From assembly GCA_963795085.1 (NCBI GenBank), contig CAWCFX010000006.1, forward strand, positions 576,001-640,000: 64,000 nucleotides of DNA. The letters are read 5' to 3'. Both the position numbers and the translations under genes were made by a program. Source of the stretch: an uncultured Gemmatimonadales bacterium. Its GTDB lineage: Bacteria > Gemmatimonadota > Gemmatimonadetes > Gemmatimonadales > GWC2-71-9. Below the pieces are notes generated by a model. It worked only from the letters and a program-made list of their open reading frames with translations. It made no database searches and was not told the DNA's origin. This document shows, piece after piece, positions 1,009 to 28,142 of this stretch (its first letter is position 1; every line of letters starts with the position of its first letter).

Positions 1009-1883
1009 CCATCGTTCGCGCCTGGATCCGGGAGATCCGCCCGCACCAGTGGGCCAAGAACCTGCTCATTTTCGTGCCGGCCATGGCGGCCCACCTGGAA
1101 TGGAACCGGGGCCAGGTCATCAGCCTGCTCGCCGGGTTCGCCGCATTCTCCCTGCTCGCCTCGTCGGTCTACGTAGTGAACGACCTGGTGGATATCGCCA
1201 ACGACCGGCAGCATGCCACCAAGAAGAACCGGCCCATCGCGGCCGGCGCCATCAGCCCGGCGGCGGCGGTCGCCGGCGCCGCGCTGCTGGTGATCCTCGC
1301 GGCCTTGATTACCTGGCGGCTTCCCCGCGAGTTCCAGTTCACGCTCGCGACCTACCTGGTCATCACCACCGCCTATTCGTTCCTGCTCAAGCGGCGGGTG
1401 CTGCTGGACGTGATCTGCCTCGCCAGCCTGTACACCATTCGGGTGGTCGCCGGCTCCACGCTGGTGGAGGCGCCCCTCTCCCAATGGTTCCTGGCCTTCT
1501 CGATCTTTTTCTTCTTCTCCCTGGCCCTGGTCAAGCGGGTCGCCGAGTTGCGGCCGCTGGTGGCGAAGGAAGAAAAGGCGGTCGCGGGACGCGGCTACCT
1601 GGCGCCCGACCTGCCGGCTCTCACCTCGCTCGGCACCGCCGCCTCAATGGCGAGTTCGCTGGTGTTCTGCCTGTACATTACCAGCGACGAAGTGACCCGG
1701 CTCTACTCCCACCCGACCCTGCTCTGGGTGGGCCTCCCGCTCTTCCTCTACTGGCAGGCACGGGTGTGGCTGCTGACCTCCCGCGGCCGGATGAACGAAG
1801 ACCCGGTAGTCTTCGCGCTCAAGGACCAGATGAGCTATCTCATCGCCCTCGGCTTCCTGGTGACCATCTGGCTGGCGACATGA
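1005..1883 (+). CDS. ubiA: UbiA-family decaprenyl-phosphate phosphoribosyltransferase (DPPR synthase-like)
   Basis: RPHQWAKNLLIF, YVVNDLVDIANDRQHATKKNRPIAAG, LALVKRVAEL and EDPVVFALKD motifs. Lies directly before dprE1/dprE2-like genes. Confidence 0.9.
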   Translation: MTIVRAWIREIRPHQWAKNLLIFVPAMAAHLEWNRGQVISLLAGFAAFSLLASSVYVVNDLVDIANDRQHATKKNRPIAAGAISPAAAVAGAALLVILAALITWRLPREFQFTLATYLVITTAYSFLLKRRVLLDVICLASLYTIRVVAGSTLVEAPLSQWFLAFSIFFFFSLALVKRVAELRPLVAKEEKAVAGRGYLAPDLPALTSLGTAASMASSLVFCLYITSDEVTRLYSHPTLLWVGLPLFLYWQARVWLLTSRGRMNEDPVVFALKDQMSYLIALGFLVTIWLAT

Positions 1884-3244
1884 CCGGGAACCTCCCCGCG
1901 GCGACGCTCTCCGGGTGGGGGCGGTTTCCGTCGGCCGACACCCGCCTGGCCCGGCCGGAGCAGATGCAGGGGCTGGGGGAGGAGATCCGGTCCCATGCCC
2001 AGATGATTCCCCGCGGGCTGGGCCGCAGCTACGGCGATGCCGCGGTCAGCCCCGGCGGCGTCACCCTGCTGGTGGAGCGGCTCAACCGCTTCCTCGGGTT
2101 CGACCCGGCCAGCGGCGAGCTCCGCTGCGAAGCGGGCGTGACCATCGAAGACCTCCTGGTCCACCTGCTTCCGCAGGGATTTTTTCCCCCGGTGACACCG
2201 GGGACCAGGTACGTCACCCTGGGCGGGGCGCTGGCCGCCGACGTGCACGGCAAGAGCCACCACAAGGACGGCGCCTTCTCCCGGCACGTGAACTGGTTCA
2301 ACCTGGTGACCGCGGACGGCGAAACCCGCCGCTGCAGCCGGGACGAGCAGCCGGACCTGTTCTGGGCCACCCTGGGCGGGATGGGACTCACCGGCGTCAT
2401 CACCGATGTGAGCTTCCGGATGAAACGGGTGGAAAGCGCCTACCTGTCCGTGGACTACGAGAAAGCCCGGAACATCGACGCCGCCCTGGAGTTGTTCGAA
2501 ACCACCGACCAGCGCTACACCGACTCCGTCGCCTGGATCGACTGTCTCACCCGCGGCCCGGCGCTGGGACGGAGCGTGTTGATGCGGGGCAACTGGGCGC
2601 CGGCGAGCGCCCTGCCGCCCCGCCTCGCCGAAGCGCCCCTGCTCGTGAAGTCCGCCGGCCGGAAATCGATTCCCTTCGATGCGCCCGGTTTCGCGCTCAA
2701 TCCGCTCAGCGTCAAGCTCTTCAACGCGGTGTTCTATCACCGCCACCCGATCGGCCGGAATATCCTGGTCCCCTACGAGCCATTCTTCTATCCGCTCGAC
2801 CGGATCCGGCACTGGAACCGGCTCTATGGCAAGCGAGGTTTCCTGCAGTACCAGTGCGTGCTCCCCTTCGCGGGGGGGCGGGAGGGGTTGATCCGGATAC
2901 TGGAACTGCTCTCGTCCGAGGGGCACGCCTCTTTTCTTGCCGTTCTCAAGCGGTTCGGCGAAAACGAGCCAGGCCAACTGCTGTCCTTTCCCCGCCCCGG
3001 GTACACCCTGGCGGTGGACCTGCCCCGGGATGGGGAGCGCCAGGACCGCCTGCTGGCGGACCTGGACCGGGTGGTCCTGGAACGGGGCGGCCGGGTCTAC
3101 CTCGCCAAGGACGCGCGGCTCAGCGCCGAGACGTTCCTGGCCATGTACCCGGAGACCGGCCGCTGGCTCGAGATCAAGCGGCGGATCGATCCGGAGCGCC
3201 GCTTCTCTTCCTCGCTCTCCCGCCGGCTGGGGCTGGACGGATGA
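1880..3244 (+). CDS. dprE1: FAD-binding oxidoreductase, decaprenylphosphoryl-beta-D-ribose oxidase (DprE1-like)
   Basis: LSGWGR, PRGLGRSYGDAA, TPGTRYVTLGGALAADVHGKSHH, GFLQYQ, SFLAVLKRFG and GGRVYLAKD motifs. ATG at 1880 overlaps the ubiA stop (ATGA). Confidence 0.9.
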   Translation: MTGNLPAATLSGWGRFPSADTRLARPEQMQGLGEEIRSHAQMIPRGLGRSYGDAAVSPGGVTLLVERLNRFLGFDPASGELRCEAGVTIEDLLVHLLPQGFFPPVTPGTRYVTLGGALAADVHGKSHHKDGAFSRHVNWFNLVTADGETRRCSRDEQPDLFWATLGGMGLTGVITDVSFRMKRVESAYLSVDYEKARNIDAALELFETTDQRYTDSVAWIDCLTRGPALGRSVLMRGNWAPASALPPRLAEAPLLVKSAGRKSIPFDAPGFALNPLSVKLFNAVFYHRHPIGRNILVPYEPFFYPLDRIRHWNRLYGKRGFLQYQCVLPFAGGREGLIRILELLSSEGHASFLAVLKRFGENEPGQLLSFPRPGYTLAVDLPRDGERQDRLLADLDRVVLERGGRVYLAKDARLSAETFLAMYPETGRWLEIKRRIDPERRFSSSLSRRLGLDG

Positions 3245-4005
3245 TCGTGCTACCCAGGAGCCACCGGGGCACCGTCCTGGTGCTGGGCGCCACCTCCACC
3301 ATCACCCGGCACGCCGCGGCGGCCTTCGCCCGCCGTGGCTACGACCTGTGCCTCGCCGCGCGCCAGGCCGACGAAGTGGGGCGCATCGCCAGCGATCTGC
3401 GCCTGCGCTACGGCATCAACGTCGAACCAGTGACCTTCGACGCGGCCGACAGCGCCTCGGCGGAACGAATGCTGACCCTGGTGATGGACGAATCCTTCGG
3501 GGATCTCTCCGGCGTGGTGCTGGGCTTCGGCATCCTGGGCGAACAGGCCAACGCCCAGGACGACCCCGCGGCGGCCCACCGGATCATCGCGGTCAACTTC
3601 AGCGCCGCGGTGAGCCTGCTGACGCCGCTGGCCAACTTCTTCGAGGAGCGGGGCCGCGGGTTCATCGGGGTGATCGGATCGGTGGCGGGCGACCGGGGGC
3701 GGCAGAGCAACTACGTCTATGGGTCCGCCAAAGGCGGGCTGGCGATCTATCTCCAGGGCCTGCGCCAGCGGCTGGCCAAGGGCGGGGTCTCGGTCACCAC
3801 CATCAAGCCCGGGTTCGTGGATACCAGGATGACCTACGGGCTGCCCGGGATGTTCCTGGTCGCCGATCCGGCCGACGTCGGCGAGGCGATCGCCCGGGCG
3901 ATCGAGAAAAAGAAGGCGGTCGCCTATATCCCGTGGTTCTGGCGCTGGATCATGCTGATCATCAAGCTGATCCCGGAGCCGGTGTTCGTGCGGATGAAAA
4001 TCTAG
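3241..4005 (+). CDS. dprE2: SDR oxidoreductase, DprE2-like reductase
   Basis: VLVLGATSTI, SVAGDRGRQSNYVYGSAKGG (YxxxK) and IKPGFVDTRMT motifs. ATGA-coupled to dprE1. Confidence 0.85.
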   Translation: MIVLPRSHRGTVLVLGATSTITRHAAAAFARRGYDLCLAARQADEVGRIASDLRLRYGINVEPVTFDAADSASAERMLTLVMDESFGDLSGVVLGFGILGEQANAQDDPAAAHRIIAVNFSAAVSLLTPLANFFEERGRGFIGVIGSVAGDRGRQSNYVYGSAKGGLAIYLQGLRQRLAKGGVSVTTIKPGFVDTRMTYGLPGMFLVADPADVGEAIARAIEKKKAVAYIPWFWRWIMLIIKLIPEPVFVRMKI

Positions 4006-4138: not shown

Positions 4139-4870
4139 TCAGGAACCCCGCCGGTACCGGGCAAAGGTCCGGGTCCCGATAAACCAGTCTTTCATGCCGA
4201 TCTTCTTCCCCTCTGCCTTGGTGCGGGGGAAATACTTGATGGGCACCTCCCGGATGACGCAGCCCCGCGCGAGGACCCGCGCCGTAATCTCGTGATCCAG
4301 CTCGAAGCCCGAGGTCTCCAGCGGCAGCGACTGGATCAGCGCCGTGCGAAACAGCTTGAGGGCGGTCACCGTGTCCGAGATGTACGAACCGGTACACAGG
4401 AGGGCCACGAAGCTCAGGCTCTGCCCGCCGGCATAGGCCAGCAACCCCTGGTTGGGGTGCTTGCCGGTCAGCAGGTTCTTGAGCCGGCTCCCGTCAGGAT
4501 ACTTCATGTAGCGGCTGCCGTACACCGCGTCCACCCCCGGCTCCATGAGCTTTCGGAACATCGGGATGTAGTCCGCCGGGTCGTACTCCAGGTCGGCGTC
4601 CTGGATGATCAGGTAGGCGCCGGTCGCCAGCCCGATCCCCGCCCGCACCGCCGCACCTTTGCCCGCGTTTGCCGGCTGGTTGTGCAGACGAACCCCTGCA
4701 AACCCGGCGACGATCTCCGCCGTGCGGTCTCGGGAGCAGTCGTTGACGACGATAATTTCCTTCTCCAGCCCCAGGGATGACAGGTCGAGGGCAAGAATCC
4801 GTTCCAGCAGGGTGCCGATGAACCGCTCCTCGTTATAGGCAGGAATCACGATGGATAACGTTTCACTCAT
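4139..4870 (-). CDS. GT2 glycosyltransferase, DPM1/polyprenol-phosphate sugar synthase-like
   Basis: LSIVIPAYNEE, IIVVNDCSRDRT, NAGKGAAVRAG, IIQDADLEYDP, DAVYGSR and EGKKIG motifs. ATG at 4870 overlaps the upstream stop. Confidence 0.9.
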   Translation of the reverse strand: MSETLSIVIPAYNEERFIGTLLERILALDLSSLGLEKEIIVVNDCSRDRTAEIVAGFAGVRLHNQPANAGKGAAVRAGIGLATGAYLIIQDADLEYDPADYIPMFRKLMEPGVDAVYGSRYMKYPDGSRLKNLLTGKHPNQGLLAYAGGQSLSFVALLCTGSYISDTVTALKLFRTALIQSLPLETSGFELDHEITARVLARGCVIREVPIKYFPRTKAEGKKIGMKDWFIGTRTFARYRRGS

Positions 4871-5613
4871 GGATTTCCGCCCAGGTGCGAGGCCACGCGG
4901 GCCAGTTCGTCCGGAGTGTTGATACCGACCGCCTCCATCGCCCCGGTTGCCGGCACGGTGCAGACCCGGCCCTGGCGCGCCAGCCATGGAATGAAGGGCA
5001 GGAAATTCCGTTCGCCGGTGGCCCGGCCCCGCGGGGCAACGGCGGCGTAGGCGGGCAGGCCGGTCAGGTATATCTCCCGGGTGAGCGCGAACAGCCCGAT
5101 ATCCCCTTCCCCCTCGGGGGGCATGCGATCGCCCTCCCGCCGGTGCAGCACGCCATTGATGGACCCGGCGCCGTCCCGGGAAAAATGGATATAGGGTTCC
5201 GCACCGACGAGGGTCGGAAAGGCCAGCCCGGGACGGGGGTCCGCCTCCATGGCGGCCGCGAGGCGAGCCGCCGTCTCTTCCGCTACGGCGACCTGGTCGC
5301 ACCAGGTGATCCAGACCTCGTCCGGCATGATCTCTCCCACTCGAAGCCGGGGAATCAGGACCGCGTCCAGCATGCCGGTGGGCGACTCCTGGACCAGCAA
5401 CTCGATCCGCTCGGGCCGCCCGGCGCAATGCCGCCCGGCGAGGGGAGCGCCGGCCGGGCTTACCACGACCAGGAAACGGTCCACCCGGTCCCGGTACCGT
5501 GCGAACAGCCAGTCAATCATCGGCCGGCCATGCACCGGCACCAGCAGCTTGGGCAGCTCAGATCCCAGGCGGGACCCCCGGCCGGCAGCCGGAACGATCA
5601 GCACGCGGCTCAC
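4867..5613 (-). CDS. Sugar-phosphate nucleotidyltransferase (GlmU N-terminal/MobA-like NTP transferase)
   Basis: VPAAGRGSRLGSELPKLLVPVHGRPMI, VQESPTG, TWCDQ and GINTPDEL motifs. Confidence 0.85.
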   Translation of the reverse strand: MSRVLIVPAAGRGSRLGSELPKLLVPVHGRPMIDWLFARYRDRVDRFLVVVSPAGAPLAGRHCAGRPERIELLVQESPTGMLDAVLIPRLRVGEIMPDEVWITWCDQVAVAEETAARLAAAMEADPRPGLAFPTLVGAEPYIHFSRDGAGSINGVLHRREGDRMPPEGEGDIGLFALTREIYLTGLPAYAAVAPRGRATGERNFLPFIPWLARQGRVCTVPATGAMEAVGINTPDELARVASHLGGNP

Positions 5614-6266
5614 GCCACCGGCTCCAGGATGACGGGAACCAGCTCGGCCAGGTCTGGAAAACTCCCCAGGAAACGAACGTGGGCCAGGGCCTCTCCGGAC
5701 CGTACCGAGGCGACCCAGGCGCCGGCGGCGATGCCGGCCAGGATCCCGGCCCGGCTGTCTTCCACGACCAGGGTCGCGGAGGGATCGCCGCCCGCCAGCC
5801 GGATAGCGGCGGCGAAGGTATCCGGTGCCGGCTTGCCTTCACGGACATCCTCCGCGGTCACCACCACGGGGAAGAACTGGTCCAGCCCGGCCCGCTCCAG
5901 CAGCATCCGGGTCGTGGCCCGGGAGGCGCCGGTGCCCAGGGCCAGGGACAGTCCGGCCTGCGCCAGCCGGGACACGGCGGGTCGCGCGTCGGCGAATCCG
6001 CCGGTAGCGCCAAGGTACTCCCGGGCCCGCTCCTGCTTGAAGGTCACCCACCGCCGGATATCCGCCTCCGCCGGGGCCGCGGGACCCGTAACCTCCCGCA
6101 CCACGCTTTCGGTGGTGCGGCCGGCGATGGCGGGATAGGGCGGCGGGGCCGTCACCCCCACGCGGGCCCAGAGATCGGCAAAGGCGCGCGCATGGCAGGC
6201 GCTGCTGTCGGTGAGCACGCCATCCATGTCGAAGACGATCAGTTCAAACCGGGGGGGCGGGCTCAC
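5610..6266 (-). CDS. HAD-superfamily phosphatase/beta-phosphoglucomutase-like
   Basis: IVFDMDGVLTDS (motif I), GKPAPD and VVEDSRAGI motifs. GTG at 6266 overlaps the upstream stop (GTGA). Confidence 0.85.
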   Translation of the reverse strand: MSPPPRFELIVFDMDGVLTDSSACHARAFADLWARVGVTAPPPYPAIAGRTTESVVREVTGPAAPAEADIRRWVTFKQERAREYLGATGGFADARPAVSRLAQAGLSLALGTGASRATTRMLLERAGLDQFFPVVVTAEDVREGKPAPDTFAAAIRLAGGDPSATLVVEDSRAGILAGIAAGAWVASVRSGEALAHVRFLGSFPDLAELVPVILEPVA

Positions 6267-8326
6267 TTGGAGAGCGAGGCGGTTTCCGGGAAGAGGTTCT
6301 CCACTGGCGTCTCTTCGACCATGACGTCGACCGAGGACGGCGTGGGCGAGGGCGCCACCGGCCGCCAGCGGCCCCGGAGTATGCTGGCCAGGGAGCCCAG
6401 CCCTTCCGCCACGGTGGTCCGCCGAATCTTCTCGGGTGAGAGCGGAAAGTAGTACACCGGGGTCTCGAACAACTCGGCCCGGCGTCTGAGCAGGCGACCC
6501 AGCACCACCTGATTGAAGTCGCGGCGCTGGTAATCCAGCGGCCCCTCCCGGAGAAACGTGGACCGCACCACGCGGACCCCCGAGAGCGTGTCCGAGATGT
6601 ACCGGCCGTACAGGAGCAGGTAGCTCGCGCTGAGCAGGTGGCTGCCGATATAGCTGATGGCCGCCTTGACGCTCCGGTGCCGGTACACCAGCCGGTATGC
6701 CGCGCTGATATCGTTCACCGACAGGCGGCGGCTTCCCCACACCGCGTCCAGCCTGCCGCCGGCGAGGTGCATCGCCAGGCTGACCATGTCCTCCCCCCGG
6801 TACATCCCGCTCGATTCGAACAGCATGACGTAGTCGAAGGAGGTATCCGCGGCGATCTGCGAGAAGGCCGCCGCGCTGCTGGCGCCCCGGGTCGCGAGGT
6901 TCCGCACCGGGAACGGCAGCGACTCGAGAAATTCCGGCGCGAGGTTCTCGTGGCATTCGTAGAAGACGGTGGCCGTGACGGGCAGGTCGCCGATGCCGGA
7001 CCGGACCATCTCCACGATCGACTCGGCGATCTTGTTGAGCGACTCGGCCTGGACCAGGAGGATGGCCACCCGCTGCCGCTCGCCCCGGCGAAGCAGCGAC
7101 CGGATGAAGGGCGTCAGCACCTTGGAGGCATCGTGGCGGCCGCTCACCCCTTCCTCGTAGTTGCCGATCCGCACCAGCCGGGGATCCTCCAGGCTCTCCA
7201 GGTGGCCGAGCGGAACGTAGGCGCCCGATTCCCGCCGGCCGGGCTCGTTCAGCAGGTAGTGGGTGATCAGCGCCGGGGTCGGCACCGCCAGCTGGTTCTT
7301 CCCCCGCAGGTAGAACAGCGCCTTGTTGATGAGGTCCACCGCGCTGTTGCCGAAGATCTCCGCGTCCTCGTGCAGGTTGGTGATCAGCACCTTGACCGCC
7401 GTGAGGTTCCGCGCGATGGCCCAGCCGATCCCGGGCGTCAGGTAGGACGGGAACAGGCTGGAATGCTGGGTACCCGGCGCATAGACGATGAGGTCGGCGG
7501 CGGCGATCTTTTCGAGCAGGCGCGGGTTGGGCTCCGGGATGACGCTCCGCTCGGCGAGGTACCGCTCCAGCGCGCCGGGGCCGGCATCCGCCAGCCGGGC
7601 CGCTTCCTCCTCCGTGGGCACCCGGTCCAGCAGGTAGATATCCCGCAGGTGCTGTGCGGTGTCCGAGGTGACGATGGCCTCCTCGGTCGCCAGCAGCCGG
7701 CCGTGCTGGTCCACCGCGACCAGGCAGGCATTGCGCCCATCGGTCACGTTCTCCACCAGGCCGGGCTCGAGGTTGAGCAGGGCGCAGTAGTCGTCCACCG
7801 CCGCATTGAAGTTCCGGGCCCGGTGGAGGAAACACCCGGCGAACACCAGGTTGCCGATGCTGCAGTCGCCGAAGCTGAACGGCCGGGACCGGGCCTCCAA
7901 CTCGAACCGGTCCAGCCGGGACGCCACCGCCTCCCGCACCGCGGGGTCCAGGCCCGCGGCGAGGCCGGCCATCGTGGCCTGGAAATCGTCGGACGGGGGC
8001 AGCGGCACCCGCAGCAGCTGGAAGCAGGCAATGGCCTCGGCGAGGCGGTAGCCGGATGGAAACCGGAGGTCGAGGATGGCGACCAGCCCGGGCGCGCAGG
8101 TCCTGAGCTTGACGGCGAGGCGGGAGGCGTTCTTCCGGAAGTCCGACGGACCCAGGGCGTCGCCCAGGAAACGGCGGACCTCCCCCGTGGACAGTCCGTC
8201 GTCGTAGCCGTTGATGGCCAGGGTCAGCGCTATTCGCGGGCTCTTGATCAGCTCGGAGGAGAGGACGCTGGATCCCCGCCCCCCGGTAAAGAGCACCACG
8301 CGAACCATGTCGTCGGCGGCAGTCAC
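6263..8326 (-). CDS. YvcK/CofD (UPF0052)-family domain fused to a C-terminal degenerate DPM-like GT2 domain
   Basis: N-terminal VVLFTGGRGSS, INGYDDGLSTGEVRR, GPSDFRKN, CSIGNL and ADLIVYAPGTQHSSLFP motifs. C-terminal DAVWGSRR...YISDTLSG...ETPVYYFP. Start could be 8344, 8326 or 8308. Confidence 0.8.
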   Translation of the reverse strand: MTAADDMVRVVLFTGGRGSSVLSSELIKSPRIALTLAINGYDDGLSTGEVRRFLGDALGPSDFRKNASRLAVKLRTCAPGLVAILDLRFPSGYRLAEAIACFQLLRVPLPPSDDFQATMAGLAAGLDPAVREAVASRLDRFELEARSRPFSFGDCSIGNLVFAGCFLHRARNFNAAVDDYCALLNLEPGLVENVTDGRNACLVAVDQHGRLLATEEAIVTSDTAQHLRDIYLLDRVPTEEEAARLADAGPGALERYLAERSVIPEPNPRLLEKIAAADLIVYAPGTQHSSLFPSYLTPGIGWAIARNLTAVKVLITNLHEDAEIFGNSAVDLINKALFYLRGKNQLAVPTPALITHYLLNEPGRRESGAYVPLGHLESLEDPRLVRIGNYEEGVSGRHDASKVLTPFIRSLLRRGERQRVAILLVQAESLNKIAESIVEMVRSGIGDLPVTATVFYECHENLAPEFLESLPFPVRNLATRGASSAAAFSQIAADTSFDYVMLFESSGMYRGEDMVSLAMHLAGGRLDAVWGSRRLSVNDISAAYRLVYRHRSVKAAISYIGSHLLSASYLLLYGRYISDTLSGVRVVRSTFLREGPLDYQRRDFNQVVLGRLLRRRAELFETPVYYFPLSPEKIRRTTVAEGLGSLASILRGRWRPVAPSPTPSSVDVMVEETPVENLFPETASLSK

Positions 8327-8330
8327 GGGG

Positions 8331-9653
8331 TCAGGCCGGGGCACCGGCGATGACCGGCGCGGGTATCGAAACGGCCGTTTGTCCCGGCCGGCGGGCGACC
8401 AGTCCGAAGAAGGCGGACTCGTGGAACCAGAGAAAGAGGAGGAACGCCAGGAGCGGCCCCGCCTTGACGATGCTCACCGCCAGGAGGGCCGCCGTAGAGG
8501 TCACCGGGACCAGGTCCCGAAACAACAGCACCAGCACCAGGTTCTGCAACCCTGCCAGCACGAAGATGGTCATGAGGTGGAGCCGGGCGGCCCCCGAGAG
8601 CCGGGAGCTGCCGGAGAGCAGAAAGGCAAGAGGGATAAAGAGCACCGCGAGGTAGTGCTCCCAGACCACCTGGGAAATCAGCAGGCAGAACGCAATCGCC
8701 GCCAGGTAGATAAACAGGCGCCGGGCGGCGGGGGCCCAGGCTTCCGCCCGGCTGCGCCACAGCAACCGCCCGACGGTTCCCACCACCACCACCTTGATCG
8801 CCAGCCGCAGCGCATCCGGAAACCAGCCGCCCGCCCGGGGAACCGGGATGGAGTCGGTGATGGGGCGGAAGGCGTCGGCAATGATGTACAGGGAACTGTT
8901 GAACGGCCACGGTGACGGCTTCCGGCTGCCGCGGCGCAACAGGTCGAGGAACTGCAGATGCAGGTCCAGACCGAACAGCGCCAGCGACAGCAGGCCGGCA
9001 ACCCCGGCCAGGGCTACCAGCGACACGAGGTAGCGCCGCCCCGAGAACAGGGCGAGGAACGCCGGAACGAAAACAAAGGCCGGCTTGACCAGGACAGCCA
9101 GCACCATGCAGAGAGCGGCCAGGACCATTCGCTCCCGCACGTAGGCCATCAGGCCCAGCACCAGGAGCAGGAAGACCACCGGAGTGGTCTGGCCGCCCAC
9201 CCGGTAGATCGTCCAGAAGGGCTGATAGAGCAGCACCAGGCCGGCAAAGACCACCAGGAACCACGAGGTCTCCGCCGGTGACTTCGCCGGAGGCTTGAAT
9301 TCGCGGTACAGGAGCACCAGGGCCGCGGCGTAGGCGAGGGTCCCGGCCAGCTTGAGGACGATCAGGGCGATGCCCGGCGGGAAAAGCGCCAGGGGCGCAT
9401 AGAACAGGGCCGAAATGGGCGCACCCCAGAACGCCATCTTGCCTTGCGGGGCGCTGCCGGCGATCGGGGTGTCGGGATTGTAAATATCGAGCAACTGGCC
9501 GTGGGCCGCCCGCCGCCCGGTATCGTAGAAGTTGGCGAAATCCCAGCCATGCCCTGCAGGCACCAGAATGGCCGCGGTCGCCATGACGAGCGCCGCGGCC
9601 AGGATCAGTCGAAACAGGGTTTGCTGCTTGGGGGCAGAGTCTGACAATGTCAC
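8331..9653 (-). CDS. GT87/DUF2029-like polyprenol-dependent membrane glycosyltransferase
   Basis: WDFANFYDTG, GGQTT, LAVLVKP, NSSL and VVWEHY motifs in a multi-TM protein. Confidence 0.75.
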   Translation of the reverse strand: MTLSDSAPKQQTLFRLILAAALVMATAAILVPAGHGWDFANFYDTGRRAAHGQLLDIYNPDTPIAGSAPQGKMAFWGAPISALFYAPLALFPPGIALIVLKLAGTLAYAAALVLLYREFKPPAKSPAETSWFLVVFAGLVLLYQPFWTIYRVGGQTTPVVFLLLVLGLMAYVRERMVLAALCMVLAVLVKPAFVFVPAFLALFSGRRYLVSLVALAGVAGLLSLALFGLDLHLQFLDLLRRGSRKPSPWPFNSSLYIIADAFRPITDSIPVPRAGGWFPDALRLAIKVVVVGTVGRLLWRSRAEAWAPAARRLFIYLAAIAFCLLISQVVWEHYLAVLFIPLAFLLSGSSRLSGAARLHLMTIFVLAGLQNLVLVLLFRDLVPVTSTAALLAVSIVKAGPLLAFLLFLWFHESAFFGLVARRPGQTAVSIPAPVIAGAPA

Positions 9654-9683
9654 GTTGACGGCCCTTGATCAGCAGCCGGCGGG

Positions 9684-9851
9684 TCAGACTCCGTCAGCCG
9701 GCTTCCGCTTGAAAAGAGACCCGATCTTCCGGAAGAATCCCACGACGTGCCGCCAGAAAATGAGCAGCGCACCGCCGATCGCGCCGAGGATCGACGTCAG
9801 GGGGAGAATCTGGTCGGGACCAACGTACAGGAGATTGAGGAGGAGCAGCAT
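9684..9851 (-). CDS. 55-aa small membrane protein (YVGP motif, TM helix, basic tail)
   Basis: MLLLLNLLYVGPDQILPLTSILGAIGGALLIFWRHVVGFFRKIGSLFKRKPADGV, with GAAAGG RBS just upstream of ATG 9851. Confidence 0.7.
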   Translation of the reverse strand: MLLLLNLLYVGPDQILPLTSILGAIGGALLIFWRHVVGFFRKIGSLFKRKPADGV

Positions 9852-9988
9852 CGGTAACCTTTCTGGGCGAAATGCCTGACGGACGGCGGTCTTCCAGTGC
9901 CGGACGCGGCGGTGATACAATCCTGATTCGTGACCGGTATTCCGGATGAAGAACCCTGCGGCAAAGCTCGGGAGCCCGCATGGGGAGG

Positions 9989-10004
9989 AGCAACCGGTAT
10001 GCCA
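9989..10004 (-). promoter_or_regulatory. sigma-54 (-24/-12) promoter of the small-protein/GT87/YvcK operon
   Basis: TGGCATACCGGTTGCT on the minus strand; GG-N10-GC spacing; intergenic. Confidence 0.8.
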
Positions 10005-10075
10005 CCAATAACATAGCGGGAGGAGCAGCCCTCCCATCGACTGTTGCGATGATCCTACAGTTTCTGGGCTGACCC

Positions 10076-11488
10076 CTACACTGTCAGGGTGGGGGGACCG
10101 CCGCGCCGGAAGCGGATCCCCCCCGCCAGGGTCAGCAGACCAAGATACACCAGTCCTCCCACGGCCACTCCGGTCCAGAGACCGGTGAACCCCGATACGT
10201 AGAGTACCACCGCCATACCCGATCCCGCCAGCAAGGTCCGCCAGAGCCGGGAGAAGTGCGGGAACCCGAAGCCCTCAGCGCGGGCAAAGGCCAGCGCCAG
10301 GAGGGTCCGGAAGGACTCGGTTCCGAGGGTCGCCAGGGCCGCGCCCACCATACCGTAGCGGGGGATGACGAGGATATTGAGCAGGAGGTTGAGCATCGCG
10401 GACACGAAGGTGATCCGGAGCACCCGGTCCTGGCGGCCCGCCGCGATCAGGGCCATCTGCGGGACGTTGCGGTAAAAGGCGACCGGGACCGTCCAGATGA
10501 GAACCTGCAGCGCGGTGGTGGATGGATCATATCCCGGGCCGAAGACAAACCGGATGATGCCAGGGGCCAGGAGAAAGCCGCCTGCGGCGACCGGGAACGC
10601 CGCGGCGAAGACCTGGGCCATCGAGGTCTGGTACAGGGCCTTCTGCCGGACCGGCTCCGGGGCCAGCCGGGTCAGGGTAGGCAGCAGGCTCTGGCTGTAG
10701 GCAATGCCGAGGTTGAGCAGGAAGCTGATGAGGGTGTATGCTGCGACGTACTGTCCGACGTCGGCCGGGGTCCAGAACGCCCGCAGAAAGATCAGGTCGG
10801 AATTGTAGATCATCAGGCCCAGCAGCGCATGCAGGACCAGTGGAAAGGCCCGGCGCAGGACCGGCCCGGCGGCCGCCCGGTCCCAGCGGAGCGGAAGCGG
10901 AATGCCCCGCTGCCGGAGCCAGAAGGCCAGCAGCAGGACCATCAGCATGTCGCCGGTGAACTGGGCCAGCGGCACCCGGGCCAGGTCGCCGGCCGACCGG
11001 ACCATGAGGATGACCAGCAGCACCATGGTCGACTCGCCGGCGATGCGGGCCATGGCGACCCGGGGCGCGTCCTCGAGGCCGAGGTGGATCCACCGCGTGT
11101 TGGCGCCGACCCCGAGCAGCGTGAGGCCGTACACGGCCAGGACGGCGCCGTCGGGCTGGGGCAGGAACAGCAGGCCGGCGCCCGCGAGGAGCAGGACCAG
11201 CGCGGCGGCCACGCCGAGCCGCAGCGCCAGCACCGCGGGCGCGACGGTGCCGGCCCGGGTGTGGTCGGCGGCAATCTCCCGGACCCCCAGGGTCTCGATG
11301 CCGCAGTCGGCCATGTAGGTGAAGTAGAGCAGGACGGCGGTGGCCAGGCCGATAATCCCGTAGGCGCCCGGCCCCAGCGTCCGGGCCAGGTACACGGTGG
11401 CCGCGAACGCGATCAGCCGGGCGATGGCCTCGCCGGCGCCCAGCGCAAAGAAGTTCCGTTGAACAGTTTGTTCGTGACGATCGGTCAC
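10076..11488 (-). CDS. Wzx-type oligosaccharide flippase
   Basis: RNFFALGAGE, YLARTLGPGAYG, VGQYVAAY and NILVIPRYGMVGAALAT motifs; many TM segments. Confidence 0.9.
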   Translation of the reverse strand: MTDRHEQTVQRNFFALGAGEAIARLIAFAATVYLARTLGPGAYGIIGLATAVLLYFTYMADCGIETLGVREIAADHTRAGTVAPAVLALRLGVAAALVLLLAGAGLLFLPQPDGAVLAVYGLTLLGVGANTRWIHLGLEDAPRVAMARIAGESTMVLLVILMVRSAGDLARVPLAQFTGDMLMVLLLAFWLRQRGIPLPLRWDRAAAGPVLRRAFPLVLHALLGLMIYNSDLIFLRAFWTPADVGQYVAAYTLISFLLNLGIAYSQSLLPTLTRLAPEPVRQKALYQTSMAQVFAAAFPVAAGGFLLAPGIIRFVFGPGYDPSTTALQVLIWTVPVAFYRNVPQMALIAAGRQDRVLRITFVSAMLNLLLNILVIPRYGMVGAALATLGTESFRTLLALAFARAEGFGFPHFSRLWRTLLAGSGMAVVLYVSGFTGLWTGVAVGGLVYLGLLTLAGGIRFRRGGPPTLTV

Positions 11489-14046: not shown

Positions 14047-14169
14047 ATAATTCCGCCGTCTGGACACACCCGATCGAACAAGCTATTGCCGTCACATAAC
14101 TTACCCCTGGGTTGAAATGCAACCGTGGGGTGCGTGCCACACCCGACCAACCGGGCGGGAAAGGAACCA

Positions 14170-15999
14170 TTGGCTGCCGACTCGCATTACCTGGGGATTT
14201 CGGCGTTCTACCACGACAGCGCCGCATGTCTCCTGACCAACGGCCGGATCGTGGCCGCGGCCCAGGAAGAACGGTTTACCCGCATCAAGGGTGATTCCGC
14301 CTTCCCGGCGCGGGCCGTCGAGTATTGCCTGGGCCAGGCCGGGATCGGCACCGCCGACCTGGCCTGCGTCGGATTCTACGACAAACCGCTGCTCAAGTTT
14401 GAGCGGATCCTGGAGACCTACCTGGGCGTCGCACCGCGCGGATTCGCATCCTTCCTCAAGGCGGGGCCGCTCTGGATGAAGGACAAGCTGTACATCGAGC
14501 GGCAGCTGCGCGACGCTCTGGACTACGAGGGCCTCCTGCTCTACGCCGAGCACCACGAGTCCCACGCCGCCAGCGCCTTCTTCCCGTCGCCCTTCCAGGA
14601 GGCGGCGATCCTCACCCTCGACGGGGTGGGCGAATGGGCGACCACCTCGCTCTGCCACGGCCGGGATCACGACATCGAAGTGCTCAAGGAGATTCACTGG
14701 CCCGACTCGCTGGGACTGCTCTACTCGGCATTCACCTATTACACCGGCTTCAAGGTGAACTCGGGGGAATACAAGGTCATGGGCCTGGCGCCGTACGGCG
14801 AGCCCCGCTACGTGGACCTGATCTTCCGGGAGCTGGTGGACCTCCGCGAGGACGGCTCCTTCGCGCTCAACCAGAAGTACTTCAACTACCTGAGCGGCCT
14901 CACCATGACCAACAGTGCGTTCGACGAACTGTTCGGCGGGCCGCCCCGGGAACCGGAGACCAATCTCACCCAGAAAGAGATGGACCTGGCCCGGTCGGTC
15001 CAGGCGGTGTGCGAGGAGATCATGCTGCGCCTGGCCCGTACCGCCCACCGGGAGACCGGGTCCGACAATCTCTGCCTGGCGGGCGGGGTGGCGCTCAACT
15101 GCGTGGGCAACGGCCGGATCCTGCGGGAGGGTCCGTTCAAGCGGATCTGGATCCAGCCGGCCGCCGGGGATGCCGGCGGCGCCCTGGGCGTGGCCCAGCT
15201 CGCCTGGCACCGCCATGCGGGCAAACCCCGCCTGCCCCACCCGGGCCGGGACGGCATGCAGGGCGCCTACCTCGGCCCCGCGTTCACGCCCGAGCAGATC
15301 CAGCGCTTCCTCGACTCCATCGGCGCCGGCTACCGCCGGCTGGACCGGCCCGCCCTCCTCCAGGAAACCGCGGCCCTGCTGGCCGACGAGAAGATCGTCG
15401 GCTGGTTCGACGGCCGCATGGAGTTCGGGCCCCGGGCCCTGGGCAGCCGCAGCATCCTGGGCGACCCGCGAAGCCCGCGGATGCAGGCCCAGATGAACAT
15501 CAAGATCAAGTTCCGCGAGGGCTTCCGGCCCTTCGCGCCCAGCGTCCTGGAAGACCGGGTGGGCGAGTACTTCGATCTCCACGCCGAGTCGCCGTACATG
15601 CTGCTGGTGGCCCCCATCTGCCGGGAGCGCCAGATTCCCATGACCGACCAGCACCGCAATCTCTGGGGCATCGAACAGCTCAACGTGGTCCGCTCCGACA
15701 TCCCCGCGGTGACCCATATCGATTATTCGGCCCGGGTCCAGACGGTGAGCCGGGAAACCAACCCCAATTACTACGACCTGATCGCCGAGTTCGACCGGCT
15801 GACCGGGTGCCCGGTGGTGGTGAACACCTCGTTTAACGTTCGCGGCGAACCGATCGTGTGTACCCCCGCCGACGCGTACCGCTGCTTCATGCGGACCCAT
15901 ATCGACAGCCTGGTGCTGTACCCGTTCCTGCTCGAAAAGAGCGCCCAACCCGAGTGGAAGGAGAGTGAGGATTGGCGCAGCCAGTTCCAGCTCGATTGA
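14170..15999 (+). CDS. O-carbamoyltransferase (NodU/CmcH/SxtI family)
   Basis: LGISAFYHDSAA, EEERFTR-type motif, HHESHAASAF, EYKVMGLAPYG, GGVALNCVGNG, EFGPRALGSRSI and NTSFNVRGEPIV motifs. TTG start follows AAGGA. Confidence 0.95.
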   Translation: MAADSHYLGISAFYHDSAACLLTNGRIVAAAQEERFTRIKGDSAFPARAVEYCLGQAGIGTADLACVGFYDKPLLKFERILETYLGVAPRGFASFLKAGPLWMKDKLYIERQLRDALDYEGLLLYAEHHESHAASAFFPSPFQEAAILTLDGVGEWATTSLCHGRDHDIEVLKEIHWPDSLGLLYSAFTYYTGFKVNSGEYKVMGLAPYGEPRYVDLIFRELVDLREDGSFALNQKYFNYLSGLTMTNSAFDELFGGPPREPETNLTQKEMDLARSVQAVCEEIMLRLARTAHRETGSDNLCLAGGVALNCVGNGRILREGPFKRIWIQPAAGDAGGALGVAQLAWHRHAGKPRLPHPGRDGMQGAYLGPAFTPEQIQRFLDSIGAGYRRLDRPALLQETAALLADEKIVGWFDGRMEFGPRALGSRSILGDPRSPRMQAQMNIKIKFREGFRPFAPSVLEDRVGEYFDLHAESPYMLLVAPICRERQIPMTDQHRNLWGIEQLNVVRSDIPAVTHIDYSARVQTVSRETNPNYYDLIAEFDRLTGCPVVVNTSFNVRGEPIVCTPADAYRCFMRTHIDSLVLYPFLLEKSAQPEWKESEDWRSQFQLD

Positions 16000-16376
16000 C
16001 CGCGGCGGAGCTGCGGAAGTTCGGCCTCCTGGTCGGCGGGGTCTTTGTCGCGCTCGGCGGCCTGTTCTGGTGGCGGGACTCGGGCCGCGCGGCCGCCATC
16101 CTCTGGGGGGTCGGGGGGCCGCTGATGGCGCTGGGACTGGCGGCACCGGCCCTGCTCCGCCCCGTGTACCGGGCCTGGATGGGGCTGGCGCTCCTGATCT
16201 CCAGGGTAACCACGCCGGTGATCATGGCCGTGCTCTACTTCGTGGTGATGACGCCGGTGGGCTTGCTGGCCCGGGCCTTCGGACACCGCCCGCTGGAGCG
16301 GGGCGGGAAGGACCGGGAACTATGGCTGGTGCGCCAGCCGGCCGACCGGAAGAGCGACATGGAACGGCAGTTCTGA
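15972..16376 (+). CDS. SxtJ-family membrane protein
   Basis: ELRKFGL, LRPVYRAWMGLA, VLYFVVMTPVGL and C-terminal MERQF; typical position after a carbamoyltransferase. Confidence 0.85.
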   Translation: MAQPVPARLTAAELRKFGLLVGGVFVALGGLFWWRDSGRAAAILWGVGGPLMALGLAAPALLRPVYRAWMGLALLISRVTTPVIMAVLYFVVMTPVGLLARAFGHRPLERGGKDRELWLVRQPADRKSDMERQF

Positions 16377-16842: not shown

Positions 16843-18699
16843 TCATTCCGAGTCAGCCGGCCACTGGTCTTCCCCGGTGGCCCCGAGGAGGCTGTCCATG
16901 GTGGTCCGGAGTCCGGCCAGCCTGGACGCCGCAATCGGGTTCCCGGCCAGGTTGGTCAACTCCCCCGGGTCGGTTTGCAGGTCGTACAGCTCTTCGGCCC
17001 CATCCTCGTGCCGGATATAATGGGCGCTTCCCACCGTCAACGCACGAAGTTCTTCCACTTTGCCGGATGGCTTCCCGGAAGTGATCACCTCGGTGAGAAC
17101 CGGTTCCGCGGGCGTGGAATCGGCGGGGTCCCAGAACCGCCGCAGAGTGCGGCCGGGAAACAGGTCCGCCTCCTCGCTGCCGGTGAGGTCGAGCACCGTG
17201 CGGGCCAGGTCGCGCAGGTTGAGCGGTTCGGAGACTCGCATCCCTTCCGGCACTTCGCCGGGCAGCGCCATGATGAGGGGCACGTTGATGACCGGCTGGT
17301 AGAGACTGTTGCCGTGCACGAACATGCCGTGCTCGCCGAACTGCTCCCCATGGTCCGACGTCACCACGACGAGGGTGTTCCCCAGGACGCCCCGGCTCTC
17401 CAGCGAGTCGAGCAGCTTCCCGATCTCGTCGTCCAGGTAGGCCAGCGACGCCGCGTACGCCTCGTGCTCCCGCTGGATCTCGGCCCGGGTCATCCGCAGC
17501 TTGACCACCCGGCGCGCGCCCCGGATGCTCTGGTCGGTGAGATACGGCTTGCGCGGCGTGGCCGAGGCAAACCTCCGGTCGAATTCCTCCGGCGGCAGGT
17601 ACGGCTCGTGCGCATCGTAATAATTGACGAATGCGAAGAAGGGACGTGACGCGTCCCGTTCCCCCAGCCAGTCCAGCAGGTCGCCGTTCAGCTTCGCCGC
17701 GTTCTTGCGGCCCAGGATATCGTAGTACCCAACCATGCGCCGGACACCTGGCCGCACGGATAGATAGCGCCCCACCGAAGAATTGAGCAGCAGTTCGCCA
17801 AACGTGATGGCATAGTCCTCGTAGTGGGCAAAGCCCCGGTCGAGCCCGAAGTCCCGGCTGACATAGTGAAGGTTGGCGACGAAGCCGGCGGTGTGGTATC
17901 CCTCCCGGCCCAGCGCCTCGGCCAGCGTCGGGTGGGTGGAGTCCAGGGGCGCCCGGAAACCGGTGCTCAGGCGGTGCGGAAGCTCCCCGGTGAACATGCT
18001 GGCGTGGGACGGCAAGGTCCAGCTGGAGGGTGCCTTGGCCTCCAGAAAGTTCACGCCCCGCCGGGCCAGGTCTTCCAGCTCAGGCGTGGTCGGCCGGGCA
18101 TACCCGTTGACGCTCATGCTGAGAGAGCGGGCGGTGTCGAGAATCAGCAGCAGGACGTTGGGCGCACCCGGCTTCGGCTGAGGCAGGGTGGCGAGGACCT
18201 TCCGCTCCGACCACCGGTCAAGCCCAAAGGCGATCCCGGCCCCCAGCGCGGTCAGGAGCAGCAGCACCGGCGTGGTCCATTGCACCATGCGGACGAACGA
18301 CCGGAGCCGGCGGCTCGCCAGCGCAGAGACCTGGACCGCCACGCCCAGCGCGATAAGCAGCAGGGCGTAGGTGTGCAGCTCGGTGATCGCCAGAAAGGCC
18401 ACCGCGATCGAAGCGGGCAGCGCGAGGCCGAAGAGCATGAACCGGGTCGCGCGGGGCGTCCGCCAGAAGGTGGCCAGAACGGCAAGGCCCAGCGCCGGGA
18501 TGAGCACCCAGAGCGCATCCATGACCGGCGCCAGCCACACGACATGGGGGCCCAGGGCGGTCGGCGTGCCGAAGACATACTTGCGAAGCGCCATCCCGGC
18601 GCCCTCGATCAGTCCGGCCAGCAGTCCGAACCAGAGGCCGGCGAGCAGGATAGTCCCGGGACGGACCCCGGCATCCGCGTCGTGGGAAGCTTTCGACAT
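16843..18699 (-). CDS. Membrane-anchored sulfatase-like hydrolase/transferase (alkaline phosphatase superfamily)
   Basis: About 5 N-terminal TMs. PNVLLLILDTAR, SWTLPSHASMFTG, YYDAHEPY, TSDHGEQFGEHG and ELYDLQTDPGE motifs. Confidence 0.9.
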   Translation of the reverse strand: MSKASHDADAGVRPGTILLAGLWFGLLAGLIEGAGMALRKYVFGTPTALGPHVVWLAPVMDALWVLIPALGLAVLATFWRTPRATRFMLFGLALPASIAVAFLAITELHTYALLLIALGVAVQVSALASRRLRSFVRMVQWTTPVLLLLTALGAGIAFGLDRWSERKVLATLPQPKPGAPNVLLLILDTARSLSMSVNGYARPTTPELEDLARRGVNFLEAKAPSSWTLPSHASMFTGELPHRLSTGFRAPLDSTHPTLAEALGREGYHTAGFVANLHYVSRDFGLDRGFAHYEDYAITFGELLLNSSVGRYLSVRPGVRRMVGYYDILGRKNAAKLNGDLLDWLGERDASRPFFAFVNYYDAHEPYLPPEEFDRRFASATPRKPYLTDQSIRGARRVVKLRMTRAEIQREHEAYAASLAYLDDEIGKLLDSLESRGVLGNTLVVVTSDHGEQFGEHGMFVHGNSLYQPVINVPLIMALPGEVPEGMRVSEPLNLRDLARTVLDLTGSEEADLFPGRTLRRFWDPADSTPAEPVLTEVITSGKPSGKVEELRALTVGSAHYIRHEDGAEELYDLQTDPGELTNLAGNPIAASRLAGLRTTMDSLLGATGEDQWPADSE

Positions 18700-27605: not shown

Positions 27606-28093
27606 GATGGGGTGGTCGGATCGGGCCGGGGGATCCCCATTGCTGCCAGCCGGTCCCGCCACTCCAGGGGATCGCCGTTCCGGCTGATTCCGGGACCGGG
27701 CCGCAGAATGCCGCCCCGATGCGCCAGTACCTCGGCCCAATCCTGCCCCACCGCCTGCTCATCGTCGGTCAGCGCCACCACGTGGCCCGAGGCTTCACTC
27801 ATGCCAAGCGCAAATAGATCTGCAATCGCAGCCCCCGGAGCAGCCATGACGAACCGGACCCCGCTGAAGGTCCGGGCCAGGTCCGACAACTGTGAAGGTG
27901 TATCCGACCGGGCGACCAGGACCTCGGCTCCAGCGCTCTGCGCCGGGCCCACCATGGCGCGAAGCGCGGCCTCCAGCGCCGCTCGCCCTCCCTTGGAGGC
28001 CACCAGGACCGAGAGCGACGGCGCCGAAACCTTCCGCAGACTGCGGCCGGAAAAGGGGGTCTCGTTGGCCATCGGAACAAATATGACGCTCAT
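27602..28093 (-). CDS. Short GT2-like protein (N-terminal half only)
   Basis: SLSVLVAS...GHVVALTDDE resembles the N-half of the downstream GT2. GGGGGAG RBS before ATG 28093. Confidence 0.6.
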   Translation of the reverse strand: MSVIFVPMANETPFSGRSLRKVSAPSLSVLVASKGGRAALEAALRAMVGPAQSAGAEVLVARSDTPSQLSDLARTFSGVRFVMAAPGAAIADLFALGMSEASGHVVALTDDEQAVGQDWAEVLAHRGGILRPGPGISRNGDPLEWRDRLAAMGIPRPDPTTPS

Positions 28094-28142
28094 CAGGGGC
28101 TCCCCCAAGAATCCAGCCGGAAGTTGCTGGGACACCGTGAAT

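Follow-up and report, generated by a model that had tools for sequence, protein, structure and literature searches.

The window analysed here is a stretch of 64,000 nucleotides from an uncultured Gemmatimonadales bacterium (GenBank assembly GCA_963795085.1, contig CAWCFX010000006.1, positions 576,001 to 640,000). It has a G+C content of 67%, and its closest relatives are Gemmatimonadota metagenome-assembled genomes (MAGs). Six co-oriented genes on its minus strand, between positions 10004 and 4139, make up an operon encoding a small peptide, a glycosyltransferase of family GT87, a fusion of a YvcK/CofD-like domain with a GT2-like domain (hereafter FUS), a HAD hydrolase, a nucleotidyltransferase (NT) and a free-standing GT2 (Table 1). 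This cassette is a real and conserved unit that apparently has not been described before, and its setting is a very large polysaccharide locus.

Table 1. Features of the operon and of the surrounding locus (positions in the window)
Feature	Position	Strand	Remarks
Sigma-54-type element, TGGCAT-N5-TTGCT	9989-10004	-	138 nt 5' of the small-ORF ATG; sequence TGGCATACCGGTTGCT
Small open reading frame (ORF), 55 aa, one hydrophobic helix	9684-9851	-	ATG with GAAAGG 5' of it
GT87 polytopic membrane glycosyltransferase (GT-C type), 440 aa	8331-9653	-	Pfam PF09594
FUS, 693-aa YvcK/CofD-like and GT2-like fusion	6263-8344	-	alternative ATG at 8308
FUS N-terminal YvcK/CofD (UPF0052) domain, residues 16-344	7313-8299	-	Pfam CofD PF01933
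FUS inter-domain segment, residues 355-405	about 7130-7282	-
FUS C-terminal GT2-like domain, residues ~424-650	6395-7075	-	GT-A fold; paralogue of the operon GT2
HAD-IA hydrolase, beta-phosphoglucomutase type, 218 aa	5610-6266	-	Pfam Hydrolase/HAD_2; sugar-phosphate mutase or phosphatase
NT, GlmU-N-terminal-domain-like sugar-1-phosphate nucleotidyltransferase, 248 aa	4867-5613	-	Pfam NTP_transf_3
GT2, DPMS/GtrB/ArnC-type polyprenyl-phosphate glycosyltransferase domain, 243 aa	4139-4870	-	PF00535
Terminator-like hairpin	10017-10036		between flippase gene and sigma-54 site
MOP-family (Wzx/MurJ/MATE-like) flippase	10076-11488	-	Pfam Polysacc_synt, MurJ, MatE; directly upstream of the operon
DUF2298/Chlor_Arch_YYY-like polytopic protein, C-terminal part	1-1008	+
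UbiA-family prenyltransferase, 292 aa	1005-1883	+	without phosphatase domain
DprE1-like FAD oxidase	1880-3244	+
DprE2-like short-chain dehydrogenase/reductase	3271-4005	+	NF053786 181 bits (cut-off 250); PRK07102 282 bits (267)
Carbamoyltransferase (NodU/CmcH type), then overlapping SxtJ-like small protein	14125-16376	+	Pfam E 1.7e-92 (carbamoyltransferase)
Sulfatase-family protein	16843-18699	-
Second sigma-54-type site	28143-28158	-	sequence TGGCACCTGCCTTGCA
Polysaccharide deacetylases with DUF3473 (one fused to GT2) and AsnB-like amidotransferase	30048-31790, 59982-60869, 34153-36057	+, -, +
Sulfotransferase-family protein	55568-56383	-

Reading of the ORFs, frames and junctions showed a compact arrangement. 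The FUS/HAD and HAD/NT junctions are both 4-nt stop/start overlaps of sequence GTGA and the NT/GT2 junction is a 4-nt overlap of sequence ATGA; between GT87 and FUS there is an overlap of 14 nt, which becomes a gap of 22 nt with the alternative FUS start, and the gap between the small ORF and GT87 is 30 nt. The motif TGGCAYN5TTGCW occurs twice in the window against 0.08 expected matches, and two or more matches were found in none of 100 shuffled sequences, from which we infer that expression of the operon may be sigma-54 dependent. The ORFs, the junctions and the motif count agree with the original prediction, made on this DNA before the present analysis, which had claimed six co-oriented, mostly overlapping genes behind a sigma-54 site. 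Family and fold searches also bore out its domain calls (small protein, GT87, YvcK/CofD::GT2, HAD, NT and GT2), and its remark that the yvcK-like gene lies outside a rapZ/whiA or F420 context holds, none of those genes being present among the ORFs scanned. The second exact match to the motif places two sigma-54-type sites in one polysaccharide locus and overlaps the listed start (28147) of a minus-strand ORF without family match (27602-28147). The position of the terminator-like hairpin upstream of the operon is suggestive; intrinsic terminators in the window numbered 5 against 3.8 expected, which is not significant. The MOP-family flippase gene would form a transcription unit separate from the operon, and its product is a candidate flippase for the lipid-linked donor.

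The N-terminal domain of FUS matched Pfam CofD with 61.3 bits (cut-off 30). More specific models were not reached: the best NCBIfam match was 'GAK system CofD-like' with 78 bits (cut-off 340), the YvcK model TIGR01826 gave 53.3 bits (cut-off 196), and FUS matched none of the CofD equivalog models of NCBIfam at E<=0.01. A PDB profile search with this domain returned five structures, all of the UPF0052/YvcK group (e.g. 2hzb, 1.7e-10). The predicted structure of FUS had a mean predicted local distance difference test score (pLDDT) of 70.9 and a predicted template modelling score of 0.61, and YvcK structures ranked first in Foldseek (2hzb, E 5.4e-10, template modelling (TM) score 0.66 on the target). 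Both identities, true CofD and true YvcK, were rejected on model cut-offs and gene context. The domain keeps the motifs GGRGS and NGYDDG (D48, D49) as well as N323; the two aspartates and N323 are invariant or nearly so in 21 orthologues. In a hidden Markov model alignment to YvcK, D48, D49 and N323 correspond to D40, D41 and N198 of Listeria GlmR, a mapping by alignment only; passages of PMC10128056 describe GlmR as an accessory uridyltransferase in Listeria whose activity falls about 100-fold upon triple mutation of these residues. Within the window's clade, mean column identity over the whole FUS protein is 63%. Residues 355 to 405, which join the two domains, are among the most conserved of the family, with invariant positions including P357, L359-H362, Y376, P378, D387-L390 and H404; this stretch may serve as a lid or bind a partner.

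The C-terminal domain of FUS is a divergent GT2-like domain. No Pfam GT2 (PF00535) match was found in the last 250 residues. Structural comparison with Foldseek retrieved ArnC (9bhc, E 3.3e-6), DPMS (9ep0, E 5.1e-5) and GtrB, with E-values from 3e-6 to 3e-4. BLASTP aligned the domain to the operon GT2 (28% identity over 130 residues, E 1e-12), there was a weak match to AglJ (E 2.8e-4), and 29 of 30 matches in an Atlas feature search were GT2 clusters. Its sequence E510-S-S512-G-M514 replaces the D-A-D-L-E/Q of GT2 enzymes, S511 and M514 being invariant in 21 orthologues; S512 and M514 stand at the positions of D91 and Q93 of Pyrococcus furiosus DPMS (PfDPMS), so that both metal ligands are replaced. 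R539, the equivalent of R117 in PfDPMS and of R120 in the operon GT2, and the aspartate of the SDT motif (D585) are kept, and R117 is the lipid-phosphate-binding arginine in passages of PMC5526996. Since the domain lacks the Leloir metal ligands, lipid loading, one of the steps in the original prediction, falls to the separate GT2. A complex prediction of FUS residues 405-665 with GT2 gave a score of 0.00 (mark 0.32), which is evidence neither way.

The free-standing GT2 matched PF00535 with 105 bits and, in a profile comparison, the catalytic domain of PfDPMS (5mlz, E 6.6e-23) over the whole GT2 length; it has no transmembrane helices. The 25 orthologues compared all share PAYNE, D91-A-D93-L-E95, R120, R216 and K222/K223, and by alignment the DAD..E motif, R120 and R216/K222 map onto the metal and dolichyl phosphate ligands of PfDPMS, where the equivalent residues bind the metal-diphosphate and dolichyl phosphate according to passages of PMC5526996. 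Judged by sequence, its catalytic residues are intact. NT was modelled with a pLDDT of 96.2, and the top 35 Foldseek ranks were all held by the uridyltransferase domain of GlmU (TM score 0.74-0.85 on the query), followed by IspD, UDP-glucose pyrophosphorylases and RmlA; CofC/FbiD was not among the best 50 ranks. A CofC-like enzyme was rejected on this fold comparison.

GT87 was recognised by Pfam PF09594 (57.6 bits, cut-off 25, E 2e-15). Its motif GWDFANFYDTG contains W37, D38, F39, N41, F42, Y43 and D44, which are invariant in 19 orthologues. In PimE, another GT87 enzyme, the catalytic aspartate is D58 in the first extracytoplasmic loop; the invariant D38 and D44 may be candidates for this role in the operon protein. 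In type-A loci GT87 lies directly upstream of FUS. The HAD protein scored 106 bits with TIGR02009, under the cut-off of 153 of that model, and its best solved relatives are beta-phosphoglucomutases (3e58, 6.6e-17; 1lvh of L. lactis, 6.9e-14, full length). For the small peptide, no Pfam or NCBIfam match was found with the 117-aa ORF that contains it.

The FUS family is large. A word-indexed protein search, in which FUS relatives were scored among 8000 candidates, gave at least 1919 relatives, the best 120 of which have 659 to 1172 residues and all carry PF01933. An exhaustive search of 1.84 billion cluster representatives (clusters at 50% identity) delimited a superfamily, with 1529 proteins retrieved at E<=0.001 and 363 clusters remaining at the stricter limit of E<=1e-30; many of them are matched over their full length at 25-33% identity. 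Candidate split forms were represented by 485 short matches, most of them on short contigs or marked as partial; for the few on long contigs, e.g. P0131 and P0194 (217,658 bases), a split gene and a frameshift are indistinguishable. In a reference set of genomes from 185,579 species, a FUS relative was encoded in 409 of 449 pattern matches. The best 80 of these 409 FUS-bearing genomes, all 80 of them MAGs, were used for locus analysis. Their record titles mostly name Gemmatimonadota, Vicinamibacterales, Blastocatellia and other Acidobacteriota; Eisenbacteria, Calditrichaceae, Nitrospirales and various Proteobacteria are represented by single loci.

When the window proteins were compared with these 80 loci by tblastn (E<=1e-5), GT2 was found in 74, NT in 71, HAD and GT87 in 30 each, the small peptide in 4, UbiA in 2, and DprE1 and DprE2 in one each; four of the 74 GT2 matches (22-25% identity) are the C-terminal domain of FUS itself. 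A stricter count took in only those 57 loci that had 3 kb or more on each side ('complete' loci), and only matches of at least 30% identity and 50% coverage. NT was then present in all 57, GT2 in 56, HAD in 21 and GT87 in 19. Of the 56 loci having both NT and GT2, 49 have the two genes in the orientation of FUS. The combinations were NT and GT2 (34 loci), GT87, HAD, NT and GT2 (18), HAD, NT and GT2 (3), GT87, NT and GT2 (1) and NT alone (1). The conserved core is FUS, NT and GT2; GT87 and HAD characterise one sub-type (18/57). The cassette recurs in other genomes when the neighbourhoods of UPF0052+GT2 fusions are compared. Of the six-gene co-conservation named as a check in the original prediction, the part concerning the core stands, and the part concerning the whole set does not, given the distribution of GT87 and HAD and the occurrence of the small peptide, which lies outside the conserved core, in 2 complete loci. 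The nearest locus was syntenic for all 14 genes tested, and the MOP-family flippase gene adjoins the cassette in close relatives only (8/80 loci, 2/57 complete loci).

Loci without GT87 contain other membrane proteins and enzymes: a 694-aa polytopic protein with a Chlor_Arch_YYY/DUF6798-like tail (TM694, 28 loci), a PMT_2-like protein of 749 aa (TM749, 13 loci), a 508-aa membrane protein beside a further GT2 (TM508, 14 loci), a flippase-like LPG_synthase_TM protein (TM327, 22 loci) and a radical-SAM protein (25 loci). Cassettes of the Vicinamibacterales type (loci L015-L080; e.g. L070 3735-5819, L019 6353-7336 and L069 5739-6896) are devoid of HAD and GT87, and the 694-aa Chlor_Arch_YYY-like protein, the LPG_synthase_TM protein and the radical-SAM enzyme adjoin their FUS-NT-GT2 genes. 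In some of these loci the 508-aa membrane protein and an extra GT2 are encoded directly upstream of FUS.

Natural fusions were found among the representatives of the superfamily. A Pfam scan of length variants identified CofD::GT2 proteins with a bona fide GT2 domain (P0267, P0283), NT::CofD::GT2 proteins of 925-962 aa (P0266, P0270, P0272, P0276, P0295), one NT::CofD protein (P0319) and one HAD::NT::CofD::GT2 protein of 1148 aa (P0317). The domains of P0317 are related to the separate proteins of the window, with 28% identity for HAD (E 8e-21), 36% for NT (E 2e-41) and 44% for the free-standing GT2 (E 4e-63), the latter being the closest match to the fused GT2 domain of P0317. Membrane partners are also joined to FUS: GT87 is fused to it in P0051 and P0064, and TM694 follows it in P0121-P0123, the tail of P0121 having 49% identity with free TM694 (E 9e-155). 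These natural fusions tie the parts of the cassette into one pathway. The claim that the genes form one functional unit is supported by the recurrence of the cassette and by the four soluble activities joined in the single protein P0317.

Taken together, the operon may be described as encoding a Gtr/Arn/Ppm-type module for lipid-carrier glycosylation, to which one additional, uncharacterised enzymatic step has been added, a reading whose chances we consider evenly balanced. Its core is quite probable: NT, together with HAD where present, would make a dedicated nucleoside diphosphate (NDP)-sugar, GT2 would load polyprenyl phosphate, and the GT-C protein (GT87) would use the resulting donor outside the cytoplasm. 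In the proposed order of events, HAD, acting as a mutase or phosphatase, and the GlmU-like NT would provide the NDP-sugar, and the DPMS-like GT2, given its family and intact catalytic residues, would load polyprenyl phosphate with the sugar on the cytoplasmic side. In the least certain step, the GT2-like domain of FUS, which has kept the arginine and lost the NDP/metal site, might hold the lipid-linked intermediate, which the YvcK/CofD-like domain would then modify by transfer of a phospho- or nucleotidyl group in a nucleotide-dependent reaction, producing a phosphodiester-bearing head group. The model for this step is the chemistry of CofD in F420 biosynthesis, where an NDP-activated phospho-group is transferred to a hydroxyl and nucleoside monophosphate (NMP) is released; that the product carries a phosphodiester is something that we purely infer from this analogy. 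Flipping, possibly by the adjacent MOP-family protein, would follow, and GT87 would then move the head group to a periplasmic acceptor, probably the exopolysaccharide of the surrounding locus. Gene order, the identity of the domains, the conserved cassette, the natural fusions and the missing metal ligands of FUS are observed in the data, whereas all substrates and products named here are predictions.

That FUS itself acts catalytically on a lipid-linked intermediate, by a phospho-transfer of the CofD type, is put forward tentatively. A catalytic role is favoured because the N-terminal domain is the most conserved element of the superfamily, because the residues on which GlmR catalysis depends are preserved in it, because its link to a lipid-phosphate GT2 domain is constant, and because the GT2-like domain has remained strongly constrained in the window's clade after the loss of its donor site. 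A series of observations weighs against this proposal and the reading of the operon as a whole. By sequence and fold, the N-terminal domain is nearer to YvcK than to CofD, the best 50 Foldseek ranks of FUS included neither CofD nor FbiA structures, and we know of no proven transferase role of YvcK beyond the reported uridyltransferase activity. NT looks like a sugar-1-phosphate uridylyltransferase rather than CofC, and therefore the analogy with CofC/CofD is left to the CofD-like fold; for the NDP activation and the YvcK/CofD step of the original prediction this analogy is weakened, since NT models as the GlmU uridyltransferase domain. The FUS model is of moderate quality, and segment 355-405 is conserved yet unmodelled (pLDDT below 50). 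HAD and GT87 go together (both, HAD only, GT87 only and neither in 18, 3, 1 and 35 loci; Fisher 7.5e-11), but this figure is uncorrected for phylogeny and, the loci being related, is not an independent-sample probability. HAD, NT and GT2 would on paper already suffice for a polyprenyl-phosphate-linked sugar. Finally, the window ORFs that were scanned included no sigma-54 activator (enhancer-binding protein).

The state of the fused metal site also bears on this question. In 93 listed superfamily representatives of at least 600 aa, which were aligned for a count of residue states, the aspartate at the D91 position is kept in 77 and both aspartate and glutamate in 70, five of these 70 having the canonical D-x-D-L-E; 12 are like the window (serine at the D91 position and neither glutamate nor glutamine) and 4 are unclear. 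Retention of the aspartate in 77 of 93 therefore limits the notion of a dead domain serving as a lipid holder to the window's clade (12/93), and is a further point against a general role of this kind. The same count makes it probable that the ancestral form was a CofD domain fused to an active GT2, and that the fused domain lost its donor site in the clade of the window, where the separate GT2 would perform the Leloir step. YDDG occurs in 88 of the 93 proteins and an equivalent of N323 in all of them; R539 and D585 are each found in 90. In most of the distant CofD::GT2 proteins (P0266-P0379) the canonical Q-D-A-D-L-E-Y is replaced by F-P-S-D-G-E-Y or L-T-G-D-G-E-Y; the leading aspartate of the DXD motif is gone, and the metal ligands are retained. 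This signature may mark a different donor sugar.

Another possible explanation, which we consider doubtful but by no means negligible, dispenses with new chemistry. The YvcK/GlmR-like domain would bind a UDP-sugar or help to make it, FUS would be a regulatory, scaffolding or channelling subunit of GT2 by way of its GT2-like domain, and the product would be an ordinary polyprenyl-phosphate-linked sugar for GT87. This would agree with the matches of the N-terminal domain to YvcK structures and to the YvcK subfamily model and not to CofD equivalogs, with the GlmU-like nature of NT and the sufficiency on paper of HAD, NT and GT2, and with the C-terminal domain being a paralogue of GT2; GtrB and ArnC, both deposited as multi-chain entries, work as tetramers. 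Binding of UDP-Glc and UDP-GlcNAc by YvcK, reported in PMC5482804, and the uridyltransferase activity of GlmR (PMC10128056) are in line with it. However, the N-terminal domain is the most conserved part across the 363 clusters, the GlmR catalytic residues included, as would be expected of an enzyme more than of a sensor. In P0317, moreover, a nucleotidyltransferase in addition to NT would be redundant, and the UDP-GlcNAc-binding residues Y265 and R301 of YvcK lie in a region that is not alignable in FUS, where the Pfam match stops at profile position 237 of 290.

Three further explanations appear less credible. FUS could be a new kind of phosphoglycosyl transferase, whose CofD-like domain passes sugar-1-phosphate from an NDP-sugar to polyprenyl phosphate bound by the GT2-like domain, giving polyprenyl diphosphate-sugar and NMP and priming a glycan. 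Release of NMP is a feature of CofD chemistry, the C-terminal domain keeps the dolichyl-phosphate-binding arginine and not the NDP/metal site, and no priming enzyme of the Bac_transf or MraY/WecA type was found among the window ORFs covered by a non-exhaustive scan. This is nevertheless improbable: a DPMS-like GT2 and proteins like GT-C are the constant partners, which suggests monophosphate-linked donors, the fused GT2 domain is apparently active in most of the superfamily, and the evidence is indirect. Similarly low are the chances that the operon is a mosaic, in which HAD would be the 5-phosphoribose phosphatase of the convergent UbiA/DprE1/DprE2 pathway and GT87 would use the donor made there instead of the GT2 product. 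These genes end 134 nt from GT2, the window UbiA has no phosphatase domain of its own, and the three-component systems for pentofuranose in passages of PMC11127046 rely on a phosphatase domain of the HAD type together with a flippase and a GT-C protein. However, of the 57 complete loci just one has UbiA, DprE1 and DprE2 along with the cassette, as against 21 with HAD and 19 with GT87, HAD is translationally coupled to FUS and NT, it is of the beta-phosphoglucomutase type, and it is fused to NT::CofD::GT2 in P0317; the assignment of HAD to the UbiA/DprE system was judged unlikely on its locus distribution, its relatives and this fusion. The name of the Pfam domain and source annotations as 'CofD family protein' would make FUS a true CofD of F420-type cofactor biosynthesis. 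Such a role is effectively refuted by context, as FUS has a fused GT2-like domain throughout and is located beside glycan genes, no F420 genes were seen among the ORFs scanned, and it matched no CofD equivalog, the best model score being that for 'GAK system CofD-like'.

Returning to the reading of FUS as an enzyme, it can be speculated, at somewhat long odds against, that the CofD/YvcK::GT2 superfamily, with its at least 363 clusters at 50% identity, represents a new class of enzymes modifying lipid-linked sugars, in which the YvcK/CofD domain would add a phosphate or sugar-phosphate from an NDP-activated donor made by NT to a polyprenyl-phosphate-sugar, with release of NMP. If this were true, GT-C enzymes could install phosphodiester-bridged decorations outside the cytoplasm, and the ancestral catalytic chemistry of the YvcK/GlmR family would be revealed. 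YvcK/GlmR is involved in cell-envelope homeostasis and virulence in Gram-positive bacteria, and its function is debated (UDP-GlcNAc sensor, GlmS activator or accessory uridyltransferase). Here the YvcK fold is found in an enzymatic context, by gene order and by fusions with NT, HAD, GT2 and GT-C proteins, which offers an assayable hypothesis. The data point to an undescribed lipid-carrier glycosylation step that would be common in Acidobacteriota and Gemmatimonadota, abundant soil phyla whose surface glycans are almost unstudied. The original prediction had stated that no such pathway was described; literature searches aimed at one found none, and no paper describing a CofD/YvcK-GT2 fusion or this gene set was found in the full-text literature searched, subscription journals lying outside that search.

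The surroundings of the operon are rich in glycan genes. DUF3473 deacetylases and AsnB-like amidotransferases, both of which are present in the window, are markers of exopolysaccharide loci of the exosortase/PEP-CTERM type, often sigma-54 regulated. The pair formed by the carbamoyltransferase and the SxtJ-like protein suggests O-carbamoylation of a glycan, and the sulfatase and sulfotransferase genes hint at a sulfated polysaccharide. Among the other genes of the wider locus are one more Wzx-like gene, a gene for a Wzy_C protein, and glycosyltransferase genes of families GT4 and GT2. Convergent to the operon, the plus-strand genes between positions 1 and 4005 form another operon with overlapping stops and starts, which looks like a donor pathway from polyprenyl-phospho-ribose to arabinofuranose with its own GT-C protein, as in the system outlined in passages of PMC11127046.

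Comparison with known systems shows both likenesses and differences. Like YvcK/GlmR, to which its N-terminal domain is nearest in fold and sequence, FUS keeps the DD and N residues, and its GlmU-like neighbour links it to UDP-sugar metabolism; unlike YvcK/GlmR, it scores below the TIGR01826 cut-off (53 vs 196 bits), has no yvcJ/whiA context, carries about 350 extra residues including the GT2-like domain, and occurs in Gemmatimonadota and Acidobacteriota, as opposed to Firmicutes and Actinobacteria. With CofC/CofD (FbiD/FbiA) the operon shares a nucleotidyltransferase gene beside a gene of the CofD superfamily, and an NDP-activated phospho-transfer with release of NMP is possible; it differs in its GlmU-like NT, in the failure of the CofD equivalog models, in the lack of an F420 context and in the fused GT2-like domain. 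The free-standing GT2 resembles PfDPMS (5mlz) in aligning over the whole catalytic domain and in keeping the DXD, Q/E, R117 and A-loop equivalents, and differs in being a 243-aa protein without transmembrane helices; its paralogue in FUS has serine and methionine for the metal ligands.

At the level of the whole operon, the nearest parallels are lipid-carrier three-component systems, which include GtrA/GtrB/GtrC, ArnC/ArnEF/ArnT, the mycobacterial Ppm1 with GT87 (PimE), PpgS/Rv3779 and AglD/AglR/AglS of Haloferax. The PPPRS/MATE/GT136 pentofuranose systems are likewise presented as three-component lipid-carrier glycosylation in passages of PMC11127046. Like these, the operon has a DPMS/GtrB/ArnC-type GT2 with intact residues and a GT-C-type GT87, a candidate flippase gene adjoins it, and it is set in a surface-polysaccharide locus. 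Of the three components, GT2 and GT-C are present and the flippase is represented by candidates (the MOP-family protein in 2/57 complete loci, LPG_synthase_TM-like proteins in 22 loci); unlike in Gtr systems, no GtrA-type flippase was found at the operon. Unlike the described three-component systems, the operon adds the YvcK/CofD::GT2-like fusion, a GlmU-like NT and, in one sub-type, a beta-phosphoglucomutase-like HAD protein.

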